Made by a program: the position numbers. A stretch of DNA of 25,632 bases from Candidatus Firestoneibacteriota bacterium (GTDB lineage: Bacteria; Oederibacteriota; D2-FULL-39-29; JBDRBU01): assembly GCA_043822305.1 (NCBI GenBank), contig JBDRBU010000024.1:1-25632 (forward strand). The letters run 5' to 3'. Below, one piece after another: positions 9,001 through 15,000 of the stretch. Within the stretch, counting starts at the first letter, position 1. The number at the start of each line of letters is the position of its first letter.

Positions 9001-12000
9001 TCTTCCAATAAACCGTCTTCTTGTTCTATTAATCTACCAACTCCTTTAACCACACAACTAATAGGGTCTTCAGATAAATTCACCGGCACACCTGTTTCAT
9101 ATCTAAGTCGCTCTGAAAATCCTTTTAGTAAAGAAGTACCTCCAGCAAGTATTATACCTCTATCCACAATATCAGCAGAAAGTTCGGGCGGGGTTTTTTC
9201 TAATGTCTCTTTTATTGCTTCTATTATTCGAGCAATTGGTTCTTTTATTGCTTCTCTAACTTCCTCAGAATCAATCTCTACTGTTCGAGGAAGTCCTGTA
9301 ACTAAATCTCTTCCTCTCACATTCATTTTTAATTCTTCTTTTAAAGGGAAGGCTGAACCTATCTCTATTTTTATGTCCTCTGATGTTCTTTCACCTATTA
9401 ATATGTTATAAGCACTCTTTAACTGTTGTACTATAGCTTCGTTCAACTCATCTCCACCAACTCTTATAGAGGTATTACATACCATATCTTTTAATGAAAT
9501 AACCGCTATTTCTGTTGTCCCTCCACCAATATCGGCTATCATATTCCCAGTAGGAGTTTCTATAGGAAGCCCGGCTCCAATAGCCGCCGCCATTGGTTCT
9601 TCTACAAGATAAACACTTCTTGCGCCTGCTTGTTCTGCGGAATCTCTCACAGCTCTTTTCTCAACTTCAGTTACACCTGATGGAATCCCTATGACAATTC
9701 TTGGTCTAACTGGAGTTCTTTTATTGTGAACTTTTGTTATAAAGTATTTTAACATTTTCTCTGTAACCTCAAAATCGGCTATAACACCATCTCTCATAGG
9801 TCTTATGGCTAATATACTGGCCGGTGTTCTTCCAAGCATCTTCCTCGCCTCTTTACCTACGGCTACTATTTCACTGGTATCTCTTCTTAACGCGACTAAA
9901 GAAGGTTCATTTAAAACTATTCCTTTACCTTTCACCCAAACAAGAGTAGTCGCGGTTCCTAAATCTATAGCCATATCATTAGAAAACATTCCAAATATAA
10001 AATCTAATATCATATTAACCTCCTAGATAAGATTTCATAATATCCAGCACTTTCATTTCAGTAAATCTTAACTTCAGCAAAAAGCCATCTTCCAATTTAT
10101 CAACCCCTCGAATTTCTACTCTAATTTTTTCTAAAAAAGTATCATCTGGTAGTTTAAAAGATATAAAAATCTCAGTGCTTTTTCTAAATTGAAAAGATAA
10201 ATTACTTTTTACGCCCAGGCCTGAAGTACTTAGATCAATTGCTTTGGCTTGGCCTACAGGAACTTTTGTTGCGGAAAAAAGTTCAACATCAAAATCAACC
10301 GGCACCCTTTGAAACCTTCTTTTATCAAATATCATACAAAAACCTCCTATTTCTATTCTCTTTTCTAATATAAAATGTCTATCTTTGCTCGCTTTTACCC
10401 CTTAAAATCTTTTATTACATTCTTCCCAGACCTCTCTTTCCAAACTATCTGCTTCTTTTAAAATTAAATTTATTTCTTTCATGATTTTATCTTTATATTC
10501 TTTGTCTTTCAAATAAAAGAAATTAATCTTTACATTTAAAAATGCTGACTTCATACTGCTTAAGGCTAATGTAGCTGATACACCTACATCACTTACTAAA
10601 TTCTTATTGCCTTTAATAAGCAAGGGCTTACAAATTAAAAGTATCCTATAACATATACTTATCATCTTATATGGGATTTCAGCGGCTTTTTTTAGCACTT
10701 CTTCTATGGCTTTATCCCTTTCTAAGATTTGAGAGTCAGTCTCCTTAGGCATTTTATAAGACTTTAAAACTAAGGTATAAGCCTCTGTATCAGCTTGCAT
10801 TAAATTTAAAAGTTCATCTCTTAATTTTACGGATTCGTTTAATAAATCCGAGCATTCTTTTTCAAACTCTTTATACTTCTCATGGCCAATTGTAAAATTA
10901 GCGACCATGCAATTCAAACTCGCTGCAATCGCACCCGTAAGTGCCGCCGCCGAACCTCCACCTGGAGCCGGAAGTTTGGCACTTAAATCTTTTATAAACT
11001 TTTCTATAGGTTCTTTAGAATATAACATTTTTTAAAAGAAGGCATAAGATCATTATCATCACTGACAACGACGATAATCCCCGCACCGGCGTATAATACT
11101 AAATCTTTTATATTTACAACATCTTGATTGTTCTTCCTAAAATATGTTATTCCAGTGATTGAAACAGGTAAATTACCAAATCCATTCTTTTCTAGGTACT
11201 CTATTTGTTTTTCTGCCCTTAAACTAAAGTTTATATTACTTTTTTCATGAATTTCTTTATATATAATTTTTATCTTTTCCTTTAAACTTAGATTAATATC
11301 GTATAAAGGCCTAAAGTAGCTCTTTTGCATTCTAACTATTTCTAAAACATTCTTTACAAATTCTAAATTTGATTGGACACTATTTTTTTTAAAACTTGAA
11401 AATACCACTCTCACTCCTAAGTTTGAGCAATATTTATCAATAAGTTTAACCTCATCACTATTAATACCTCTATCTTCATTAACATTCACTAAGACTGGAA
11501 CACCAAACTTTTTTATTATGTTTATATCTTTAATTAAATATTGAACTCCTTTTTCTAAACATTCCAAATTCTTCTCAAACATTTTCTCTTCTGCGGCACC
11601 ACCATAATAATTTAATTCGTTAACAAAAGTTGTAATAATCACCATATCTGGTTTAATCTCTGATTTTCTACAAGTAATATCCAAAAATTTCTCAATACTT
11701 AAGTTTACACAACCATCTAATTTTAAGACAACAAACTCCGCTAAATTTAAAGCAGTTTTTATCGCTAAAACATTTCCAGATGGTAATACTTCGCCATCCC
11801 CGGAAACACACAAAACAACTGGTTCACCATTTTTTGTTTGTATTAATGTTGGCTTCAAACTCTCTGTTAATAATAAACTAACCATATCCTGTATTTGCAA
11901 ATCCTTAATAGCTACTGGCCAACCTTCTTTTGTAGTGGCAACTATGACCTGGCTAATCCTGTCTTTCATTTCTTCAATGTTGGAAGATAATGAAACTATA

Positions 12001-15000
12001 GATGTAAGTTCAGAATTTAAAACATAATCAAATTTCTCTTCTCTGACTAAAACATTTGTTCTACTGTTGTCTAGACCCGTAACTATTTTTTTTAAGGTTT
12101 CATCAATAAAATTAAAAGATTTGTTCCATAAAATATTACAAGAATTTAAATTATTATTAAAGATTATTTGATTATTTAAATATGCAGAAATAAAATTATG
12201 CGCATATGATATACTGTTCATATTCTGCAAATTCACTAACAATATTTCCTTGGTGAATACATCAAAGTACGGTTTTCCTAATAAAATATTATCTAAGGTA
12301 ACTATTGGAGCACACAGTACTACTTTCTTTCTAAGAAGACCTAAAGATTGAACTAATCTTTCACAGACTAAAAGATGGCTATTCTTGTTATTTAAAATAG
12401 AGGGGGTCGACACAGATAATATAAGTTTACCTTGTGTTCTGTCTTTTAATTTATTTAAAGTTGCAAAACTTAGTTTAGCACTATACTTACCCATAGGTTC
12501 AAGGTCTTTCTTCCTTAAGTTCATCTTTGTACCTATTTCACCTATACATTTTAAACTATTTATATTGTCTTTTTTCTTTTTCATAGAATAATCTATTTTT
12601 TAATTCCCCCTTAGTAAATATTTTTAATTCCCCCTTAATAAAGGGGGTTAGGGGGTTGTCCTAATAGTATACAATATGATAACCTTTATGTAAAGAAAAA
12701 ATTCATATTTTCAAAAGTCTATAATTTTATGTATTATAGAGGTTGTCCCATAACTTCAATTTTGGTTGGTAGCCGCAAACTTTAGTTTGCGTAATTCCTT
12801 ATATTACAAGCATCTTTTTAGCACAACTTCTTGCGTCAACCTTGCGTCAACTCGTATCTAATATATTTACCTGCTCCTTTCTTTCTAAAAACTCCTTTTT
12901 CTACCAATTCTTTTAATTCTTTATGAGCGGTAGTATGAGAAATCCGGTTGACTCTTACATATTCTTGCCTACTTATAGTTTTTTCTTCTACTACATACTT
13001 AATAGCCTTCCTTTGTCTTTCATTTATTTCTAACTTATGAAGTTTTTGTTTCTCAATCTCTTCCTCAAAAGATTTTCCTGGCCCAATTAAGGTAACTTCA
13101 AAACCACCAGAAAGGTTCTGAAATTCAGGTTCAGGTAAGCTGCTTTGTCTCATTTCATCAATTATCCTGTTTGTACCTTTACCCCACTGTTCAATAAATT
13201 TAATCAAGAATAATCTATCAGCAAGAAGTTTATTTCTCGGGATGGATTTGTGTTTTCTTTTTAGGTCTTGAGTGGTCAGTGGCTTGGGAAGTTCACCTGG
13301 ATTCCAAACTTCAATTCTATCATCGTAGATTGACAGTTGTATCTCTGCATTAGAAAAAGCACAGGTGGTCTCAACTATCTCTTTCCATTCCCCTACAGAT
13401 TCCTTCAACTCTATGATTTCTGATTCAGTTTTAGAAATTAGATTATTTAGCTCCATTTAGTTTGCACTCCTATTCACGAGCAACTCATTCACCAATCCCA
13501 TCACCCGCTTTCGCATGGGGTAAAACCAGATTCGCGTATAAATTGAGCGTATCCGAGCGTATTTGAGCGCATTCCGAGCGAATCTGAACAAAAAACCGAG
13601 CGTATTTTGAGCGCAATTCTTTAAAATGCATTGTTTTTCCTGTGTGTTTTTTCGCTCATTTTTTACGCTCATTTTTATGATTACATCAGCACAATACCTG
13701 AGATTTTACATATTTTATGTTTTTTCCGATGCCTTCCGTTTTAATCCTACCTTCTTTTTCCATCTTCTCTAATACGCGGTAAACTCTATTTCTGTCAGCT
13801 CCCAGAATTTCCCTGCAGCGGTCGTTTGAAATACTCCCCTCGCTGTCAATAATCGCAAGTATTTTTGCTTCTTGCTCAGCGCTGTTTAATTCCTGTTTTT
13901 TGGAAGCATCTTTGCCGTCATTTCCGGTTTTGCTTCTTGCCCTACCAATAAACAGACTCTTTGATCCGTAGGTTCCAACGACAACGGCAAATACCTGAAG
14001 CGCCGTTCTTTCCAGCTCAAAAGGCAGACGGGAAATCAAATGAAACCGTTCAATGGTAAGGCAGGCAAGATAAAGCAGTATCCACAAAGTCGTGATAATT
14101 TCCCCGCGTTTAAACCTGAGTATTTTTTCTTTTGCCACTTCCTCATCCGAACCATATGGGCTTTCCATCCATCTAACAAACTCCTTATACCCCGCATACC
14201 CGCTTAAAGCAATCAAGTAAATATTGCTAAACGCACCCGACGAATAAATGGTATTCTGCCTCCCAATAATCAAACAAACCAAATCCCAAAGTACAAATCC
14301 CCCATGAAGAATGGTAATGATAAGAGTCAGGTAAAAGAATTTTTCAACTCGTTCGTTTCTAATCTTGTCTCGGATCTCTAATTGTTCCATAAATGTTCTC
14401 CTATTTTTAAAGTGTCAATAATTACCTATCTATCGGCCAATTTCTATCATTTTATCTATAGATTTCTTAGCCTTCTGTCTTATATCCTCTGACACTTTAA
14501 CTTCGTTTTTCATTTCTTCTAATGCCCATAAAACCTTTTCTAAGGTATTTTTCTTCATATTTGGACAAATGGCTAATTCCGATGCTGGATAAAATACCTT
14601 ATCTGGAAACTCTTTTCTTAATCTATGCAACATTCCAACTTCTGTTCCAACTATAATTTCTTTGGAAGATGTGGTCCTGGAAAACCTGAGTATACCTTCA
14701 GTAGAAGTAACTTCATCGGCCAGATCACATACCTCACCAATGCATTCTGGATGAACAACAACTTTAGCCTCTGGATGTTGTTCTTTCAATTTAATTATAT
14801 CTTGAGGTAAAATTTTCAAATGTGTCGGACAGTACCCATTCCAGAGTATTAAATCCTTTTTGGTCTTTTTGGCTACAAAAGACCCTAAATACTTGTCTGG
14901 AACAAATATTATTTCTTTATCAAGTAATTTTTCTACAATTTTAACTCCATTGGCTGAAGTACAACAATAATCACTTTCTGCTTTTACGAAAGCCGATGTA

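Follow-up and report, generated by a model that had tools for sequence, protein, structure and literature searches.

Few one-carbon enzymes are as conserved as formate-tetrahydrofolate ligase (Fhs), which also serves as a standard marker gene, and the locus described here raises the question of why a bacterial order should keep a further full-length member of this family whose catalytic motifs have been lost. The locus lies in a 25,632-nt stretch of a Candidatus Firestoneibacteriota contig (the window). As an earlier survey had placed them, the gene fhs* (11004-12584, minus strand) encodes a full-length Fhs-fold protein of 526 aa, and the fchA-type gene (10402-11028, minus strand) encodes an FTCD_C protein of 208 aa, a probable methenyl-THF cyclohydrolase that is single-copy in the genome. 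Their products score 290 bits against Pfam FTHFS (residues 10-517; cut-off 27 bits) and 205.8 bits against FTCD_C, respectively. The end of fhs* overlaps the start of fchA by 25 nt (11004-11028, minus strand); of the 13 other loci, 12 have an overlap of 17 nt and one of 14 nt, so that 17 nt is the length at 12 of the 14 loci, which come from two families. The survey had counted FchA directly next in 9 of 11 loci; the adjacency holds and the count rises, since fchA adjoins and overlaps fhs*, and is single-copy, in all 12 genomes of the order.

The nearest known system is Fhs itself (FTHFS, FtfL; EC 6.3.4.3; PF01268; NF010030/PRK13505; PDB 5A4J, 4JIM, 7XZN). Fhs* resembles it in whole-chain fold, length, helical second domain, the EKF, AGAG, and MP motifs, and 27-33% identity, but differs in having lost all ATP-, formate-, and pterin-site motifs, in possessing invariant residues of its own, and in lacking roughly the first 13 residues that the active enzyme has; with its orthologues, it scores 267-312 bits against a 652-bit cut-off. 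As the survey reported, the TPLGEGKT P-loop, IKGGAAGGG, HLTGD, PFANIAHG, and W-x-KGG are lost in all 11 aligned copies; the same five motifs are present in six of six resident Fhs, with H for the W of W-x-KGG in two. The P-loop element GEGK[TS] is missing from 18/18 full-length Fhs* rows, and the former P-loop of the studied gene (codons 60-71; 12372-12407, minus strand), TPxGEGKTT in active Fhs, has neither the lysine nor GxGKT. Also absent are R-[EQ]-P-S, KGGAAGGG, H-x-TGD, GPFANIAHG, and TEAGFG, the formate/phosphate-site motifs. A study of Fhs names T74 of the P-loop and describes, in the solved enzyme, N381, F383, and W411 as a site common to ATP and folate (PMC10696740). Fhs* has D, Y, Q, K, or N at the F383 position and K, S, R, or N at the W411 position, the asparagine being partly kept; in the studied gene the F of the former N-x-F adenine/pterin site (codons 369-372; 11469-11480, minus strand) is lost and R372 is newly invariant. 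Because the F383/W411 pair has no conserved counterpart, Fhs* is unlikely to bind folate through the canonical site, which bears on the folate-binding partner that the survey proposed.

Across 79 active Fhs rows, 83 columns reach a conservation of 90% or more; by a hand count, the dead clade has lost 45 of these, keeps 19 in part, and keeps 19, a tally that is circular for the motif columns by which the active rows were chosen. The fold is retained. Two predicted structures reach pLDDT 79 and 77 (from alignments with six active Fhs and with none, respectively), both modelling residues 154-186 poorly, and the first matches Fhs structures over the whole chain in Foldseek (TM 0.82-0.85). All three NCBIfam equivalog cut-offs are failed (287.5 vs 652, 205.8 vs 938, and 197.4 vs 800 bits), as they are by four of four orthologues, whereas the resident Fhs reaches 821.7 bits and so passes NF010030. 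Since the ATP-, formate-, and pterin-site residues are gone, what is established for the enzyme suggests that Fhs* would be unable to ligate formate to THF. That ligation persists through substitute residues is very improbable: fold and length are kept and selection almost matches that on the active enzyme, but the P-loop K/T, the R of R-[EQ]-P-S, the glycine-rich loop, GPFANIAHG, TEAGF, and the F/W pair have been replaced, and differently from family to family.

Within the order (Ca. Firestonebacteria) the gene occurs in 12/12 genomes, and elsewhere in the phylum in 0/87. All 11 relatives in the order have the reported orthologue, with 43-52% identity, and each also has an ordinary Fhs, which in G007 and G011 is truncated by the end of a contig. 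In G004, fhs* is split over two contigs, both pieces being 100% identical to another locus (L098) in which the gene is whole. G003 has a second, partial fhs* that is 87% identical to its own full copy and has the same genes upstream; its contig is taken to derive from a sister population. The survey's count of nine among 5.8 billion proteins was reproduced, as nine clade members (E<=5e-237), the next match being an intact Fhs at 2e-105, in a search that scored the 8000 best candidates. Of the reported frames of 526-565 aa, the lower end stands: the proteins align at about 526-537 aa, and the 565-aa frame stems from an upstream TTG start.

Decay can hardly account for these copies. A pseudogene left open by chance or through the fchA overlap might explain the 26-nt deletion private to the studied genome (site 11030-11040, minus strand), which cuts short the end of fhs* and puts its last residues out of frame. 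However, this tail deletion apart, there is no stop or frameshift in the 11 relatives, and the overlap spans fewer than 10 of 526 codons. In all nine within-genus pairs dN/dS is 0.024-0.049 at dS of 0.6-2.2, compared with 0.012-0.031 for active Fhs, 0.030-0.038 for FolD, and 0.07-0.18 for FchA. Constraint extends along the whole chain (6-11% differences per 50-residue bin past the first bin). With the fold kept, the catalytic residues lost, and purifying selection strong, the data support the survey's description of Fhs* as a conserved pseudoenzyme. That a copy without the residues for the reaction is strongly conserved and overlaps a cyclohydrolase gene suggests that the enzyme fold has a new job.

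The survey had called fhs* a paralogue, and a duplication of the resident Fhs does not fit the data. The resident gene, on contig C103, was confirmed as intact (867 bits against Pfam, motifs present) and is 27% identical to fhs*. A tree joining the two was rejected (p-AU 0.0037, for 24 of 45 rows, a quick tree, and a long branch), and loop spacing is 62 in 17/17 fhs* rows against 70 in 5/5 resident rows, an 8-residue insertion. The two sequences thus appear to come from different subfamilies. This bears on the unlikely proposal that Fhs* joins oligomers of the active Fhs as an inactive subunit and tunes the direction, stability, or allostery of that enzyme. Fhs is tetrameric with an interface that influences activity (PMC10696740), an active Fhs is present in 12/12 genomes, and residues of the helical second domain are retained in Fhs* (H129, N130, W153, D161, S191, and E192). 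Yet the genes are unlinked as well as divergent, between-family identity is 83-85% for the resident enzyme as opposed to 44-48% for Fhs*, and the badly modelled segment 154-186 also weighs against such a subunit.

Compared with active Fhs, the gain in conservation is greatest at residues 321-340 and 381-440. Within codons 320-327 (11604-11627, minus strand), F320, E323, N325, and Y327 are invariant in the dead clade and found in at most 1% of active rows; codons 410-428, a helix end and loop (11301-11357, minus strand), contain invariant V410, K411, K421, S422, Y423, P426, and Y428, a candidate new surface. Polar S261, E323, N325, Y327, and R372 are invariant in 18/18 full-length rows and not in active Fhs, and the acidic residue of TEAGFG has become K or R in 19/19. 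These residues, together with constraint through the whole chain, lend weight to a less probable though serious reading, namely that the fold has been re-tooled and the old nucleotide end of the pocket binds another small molecule, as a sensor, carrier, or ATP-independent enzyme; the fchA link would then be historical, or FchA would supply the ligand. In the first model the new polar residues follow the strands whose ends lie at the old active site, as placed from the topology of Fhs. A narrower and unlikely form would be an ATP-independent one-carbon or nucleotide sensor, or a new enzyme, linking folate state to the MreB operon through a putative site of S261, F320, E323, N325, Y327, R372, and the K/R that replaces the metal-site glutamate. 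Against re-tooling, E323 and R372 could form a structural salt bridge, the loops that stand in for the P-loop, KGGAAGGG, and GPFANIAHG vary from family to family, unlike a fixed catalytic site, and the ESM Atlas, a weak test, gave no feature match outside Fhs. Polyanion binding was also considered and dropped (net charge +3 to +12, vs +13 to +17 in resident Fhs).

The overlapping neighbour FchA fits the stand-alone FTCD_C family, with PAPGGG and GN-x-x-x-x-D motifs, and its best solved match is the methenyl-THF cyclohydrolase 7VG4, although many close matches bear cyclodeaminase as source name and the FchA scores against NF045657 (193.8, 175.2, and 145 bits) all fall under the 275-bit cut-off. 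PMC6443876 assigns the YxxxK motif to the cyclohydrolase site. At the position of E. coli K54, FolD has Q in 10/10 covering copies of the order and is thus likely to be dehydrogenase-only. With the cyclohydrolase lysine gone from FolD, the working cyclohydrolase is probably FchA; no formiminotransferase scores above cut-off in the 12 genomes, and this context favours a cyclohydrolase over a cyclodeaminase role. Formate-THF ligation itself would be performed by the resident Fhs. Acetyl-CoA synthase (PF03598) occurs in 1/12 genomes (1/5 high-quality ones) and glycine decarboxylase in 6/12; retention of fhs* tracks neither, and the gene is not tied to acetogenesis. A missing 5-formyl-THF cyclo-ligase was rejected as the cause of retention, since the genome has that gene.

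The pair heads an mreBCD-pbp2-rodA and PilZ operon. A stand-alone PilZ-domain gene (10015-10335, minus strand) follows fchA, and mreB, mreC, and mreD (7653-10013, minus strand) lie on one strand with short gaps as a probable operon continuation. The best sigma-70-like site upstream of fhs* (12666-12694, minus strand; 10/12) is weak, because promoter and terminator counts in the region do not exceed those of shuffles; no Rfam match was found in the window. The survey put mreB next in most loci; it is indeed seen in 10/12, within two genes, but zero to two PilZ genes intervene, with 0-2 copies at this place in relatives. It is rather unlikely, yet arguable, that Fhs* works outside folate metabolism as a structural or regulatory cell-shape partner serving this operon. 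The downstream link is stable while upstream neighbours vary, and retention is independent of acetyl-CoA synthase and glycine decarboxylase; on the other hand, the gene that overlaps fhs* is fchA and not mreB, and G011 has a different ORF after the PilZ gene. Moreover, housekeeping genes often share an operon without a functional tie.

We tentatively prefer, at somewhat less than even confidence, the reading that Fhs* has no catalytic role and is produced along with FchA as its partner in an assembly of one-carbon enzymes, which it would bind. The ancestor of the order would have fixed an fhs-fchA pair of another Fhs subfamily; fchA would have been retained as an enzyme, the redundant fhs would have lost catalysis, and Fhs* would have been kept with its translation in step with FchA. 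It may hold FchA, and perhaps FolD or active Fhs, through the newly invariant surface (residues about 320-345, 372-390, and 410-428), so that the assembly could handle labile 10-formyl and methenyl folates. The donor subfamily, the partner, and the assembly steps are the least secure parts of this explanation; the scaffold role that the survey proposed is possible.

Several points argue against such a partnership. FchA evolves about three to five times faster than Fhs*, contradicting the expectation for a large shared interface. In G074 an FchA-type gene of equal score stands alone without fhs*, and the FchA of Methylobacterium and of Clostridium perfringens functions by itself. Adjacency and overlap may be inherited from an ancestral pair, folD and active fhs lie on other contigs, and the cell-shape setting is left without explanation. 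The sole apparent FTCD_C-FTHFS-FolD fusion, a 934-aa protein (P0090), was rejected as a witness: it is a single member called in an insect assembly, probably an artefact and most likely a gene model spanning a bacterial operon. No longer FchA relative with FTHFS was found among the 120 of 374 matches listed (a weak test), those all being formiminotransferase fusions. Complex prediction for Fhs* (residues 9-526) and FchA from alignments gave 0.00 in two runs whose controls did not fold, and counts neither for nor against the partnership.

The clostridial Wood-Ljungdahl module, presumably in the direct order fhs-fchA-folD, and the methylotroph ftfL/fch genes likewise link an Fhs-family gene to an FTCD_C-family cyclohydrolase, with a FolD that is probably monofunctional. 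Intact ftfL with fch 3.5 kb away was found in 15/81 loci scanned. In this order, unlike those modules, it is a dead fhs that accompanies fchA, the working fhs and folD are encoded at other places, the pair stands at the head of mreBCD, and 11/12 genomes show no acetyl-CoA synthase. PMC3633928 lists fhs, fchA, and folD together in a single cluster. Eukaryotic C1-THF synthases provide precedent for one-carbon enzyme domains that persist without catalysis. A non-catalytic role has been reported for yeast ADE3. MTHFD1L is a synthetase only, according to PMC6443876; in it the synthetase is the active part, next to a silent dehydrogenase/cyclohydrolase, whereas here a stand-alone synthetase fold is dead.

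A stand-alone dead Fhs under selection close to that on the active enzyme would mean that the fold has a second, non-ligase use. Beyond the survey's finding are the FolD without the cyclohydrolase lysine, the invariant residues peculiar to Fhs*, and the private 26-nt tail deletion. Eukaryotes join one-carbon enzymes by fusion, and the order is a clean system for asking if physical assembly also takes place in bacteria whose Fhs, FchA, and monofunctional FolD are separate proteins. Fhs* is also a family wrongly named by Pfam-level annotation. The miscount as an acetogen marker that the survey foresaw is borne out in part: Fhs* passes Pfam, and two sources name members 'formate--tetrahydrofolate ligase', but the NCBIfam cut-offs exclude it. 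Because every genome of the order has a true Fhs, the misnaming alters only the Fhs copy number.

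The fhs* gene (11004-12584, minus strand) is a 526-aa ORF that matches Pfam FTHFS across residues 10-517 (290 bits), and it is followed on the same strand by an fchA-type gene (10402-11028, minus strand; 208-aa ORF, FTCD_C), a PilZ gene, and then mreB, mreC, and mreD; the survey's finding had already placed it next to fchA and just upstream of mreBCD. Its protein scores 287.5 bits against the NCBIfam Fhs model, versus the 652 required, and the C103 Fhs of the same genome scores 821.7 bits. Two AlphaFold2 models of Fhs*, one built on 17 rows of which 6 are active Fhs (pLDDT 79) and one on 16 rows, all dead (pLDDT 77), agree in layout, although both leave residues 154-186 and the tail uncertain. 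When the first model is compared with solved Fhs structures, TM is 0.82-0.85.

As the survey had claimed, the catalytic motifs are lost: GEGKT, R-Q-P-S, KGGAAGGG, HLTGD, GPFANIAHG, and W-x-KGG are missing from all 11 aligned fhs* copies when compared with 6 resident Fhs. By hand count, 83 columns are at least 90% conserved in 79 active Fhs rows (chosen by three intact motifs), and the dead clade, whose 15 rows weigh about 6 independent ones, has lost 45 of these, partly kept 19, and kept 19. One study assigns T74, N381, F383, P384, and W411 to a site common to ATP and folate in Fhs (PMC10696740). In the dead clade nothing conserved stands in for F383 or W411, and the TEAGFG glutamate is K or R in 19/19 dead rows. 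Because active-site motifs and residues are replaced, we strongly infer that the ligase activity of Fhs* is lost. Fhs* lacks every catalytic feature of Fhs tested, and residual ligase activity is very improbable.

The gene is not decaying, judging from its substitution pattern. By a simple counting method, dN/dS of fhs* is 0.024-0.049 in all nine within-genus pairs (dS 0.6-2.2; three deeper pairs are saturated), compared with 0.012-0.031 for active Fhs (6 pairs), 0.030-0.038 for FolD (4 pairs), and 0.07-0.18 for FchA (9 pairs). These values argue against a pseudogene, which is scarcely credible, and together with the dead site and the kept fold they uphold the view of fhs* as a conserved pseudoenzyme. 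The residues S261, G270, F320, E323, N325, Y327, R372, S387, V410, and Y423 are invariant in 18/18 full-length dead rows, whereas no more than 3% of active rows have them, a pattern indicating that fhs* has gained constraint of its own. A new ligand site or activity is a possible but less likely reading than the non-catalytic partner discussed below. The dN of fhs*, divided by that of active Fhs, is 1-2 within genera; between genera and families it rises to about 4, a pattern resembling bursts of change followed by freezing.

The survey had treated fhs* as a paralogue of the resident Fhs, and duplication from that gene is not supported. A quick tree of 45 rows nests the resident Fhs among other members of the phylum, and the starred group they share leaves out the dead clade. 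The AU test rejects a tree forcing dead and resident rows together (p-AU 0.0037 on 24 rows), a result to be read with care because of the long branch. The EKF-to-FGxP spacing is an independent marker that agrees with this test: among rows where the pattern matched (it failed on many others), it is 62 in 17/17 dead rows versus 70 in 5/5 resident rows, and 62 in 11/11 Bacillota, alphaproteobacterial, and other genome loci. Taken together, the rejection and the spacing make fhs* a xenologue or ancient out-paralogue and not a recent duplicate of the resident Fhs.

Order-wide retention holds, with fhs* in 12/12 Ca. Firestonebacteria genomes, and protein and alignment queries found it in 0/87 other genomes of the phylum, several of them incomplete. 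Of 4308 representatives at 50% identity, the 150 best-ranked include 7 from the dead clade, the others of these 150 being ordinary or nearly ordinary Fhs; 12/42 metagenome loci are also of this clade. The nine members earlier reported from a 5.8-billion protein set correspond to nine 90%-clusters. Eight non-clade Fhs representatives (P0031, P0069, P0074, P0085, P0101, P0103, P0139, and P0141) have several motifs altered, by eye, and may have lost activity independently. No description of an Fhs pseudoenzyme or of fhs* was found in the literature searched, from which subscription journals were mostly absent; PMC3633928, PMC10758965, and PMC12844395 give background only. The gene is real and order-wide, and apparently undescribed in searchable papers.

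Each of the 12 genomes has a single FTCD_C gene, directly after fhs*, and the overlap with fchA that the survey had noted spans 17 nt in 12/14 loci. One further locus has an overlap of 14 nt, and the copy in the window, with its tail moved by a 26-nt deletion, has one of 25 nt. This deletion, seen at 11030-11040 against three relatives, removes about nine tail codons and shifts the frame; it is either real or an assembly error, and P0275, a protein 83% identical to the window Fhs*, has a normal tail. Overlap across 14 loci suggests translational coupling. The YxxxK motif belongs to the cyclohydrolase site of FolD (PMC6443876). K-to-Q at this motif abolishes cyclohydrolase activity. The lysine is Q in 10/10 order copies that span the site, and the source-genome FolD (contig C52, 4026-4934) is under all 25 NCBIfam FolD cut-offs shown; the order's FolD is probably dehydrogenase-only. 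The FchA protein is under the NCBIfam FchA cut-off. It is probably the working cyclohydrolase, since the solved structure that it matches best is a methenyl-THF cyclohydrolase, no formiminotransferase above cut-off occurs in the 12 order genomes, and FolD carries Q at the YxxxK lysine.

We tentatively favor Fhs* as a non-catalytic partner that would be translated in step with FchA via the overlap and, like other pseudoenzymes, would organize one-carbon enzymes without catalysis, the physical partnership being the least secure step. A comparable fhs-fchA link is known from clostridia and methylotrophs. The partner reading is weakened by the faster evolution of FchA relative to fhs* and by genome G074, where a similar FchA occurs by itself. 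The adjacency may also be inherited, because 15/81 loci scanned have fch close to an intact ftfL. Active fhs and fchA, like fhs*, occur in 12/12 order genomes and folD in 11/12; that Fhs* is a subunit of active Fhs is unlikely, and action with the mreBCD/PilZ operon is slightly more doubtful still. The source genome also encodes acsB, MetF, SHMT, GcvP, and 5-formyl-THF cyclo-ligase, with GcvP in 6/12 order genomes and acsB in the source genome alone (1/12). A tie to acetogenesis is rejected by this count, against 12/12 for fhs*, and Fhs* goes with the core formate-to-methylene-THF branch or something else altogether. The survey's warning that fhs* would be miscounted as an acetogen marker is half right: databases annotate clade members as active ligase, but each order genome carries a genuine Fhs as well, so that only the copy number would be wrong.

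Elsewhere in the source genome, contig C52 (4983-18676) carries cooC-like ATPases, CO dehydrogenase, acsB, an NADH-linked Fe-S module, and acsC, all names except acsB being a reading of translations. An 887-aa frame on contig C6 (about 16445-19106, minus strand), with a C-terminal SHMT domain and a GcvT-like N-terminus, is an apparent GcvT-GlyA fusion; an ordinary SHMT is also present. Across the order, fchA and mreB are separated by 0-2 stand-alone PilZ genes (window 10015-10335; loci L009, L011, L012, and L013). An AbiEi/AbiEii toxin-antitoxin pair lies between mreD and pbp2 (5807-7520) and is absent there in the relatives listed. Two ORFs are inserted between nadA and fhs* (12836-14390), one Schlafen/RecG-like and truncated, the other with an HTH; in several relatives nadA directly precedes fhs* without the insert. 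The FdhD-like ORF at 15337-15705 has 122 aa versus 266 aa in locus L096, and the PilT-like gene at 18821-19773 is in two pieces, one on the opposite strand; both may be further lesions or assembly faults.
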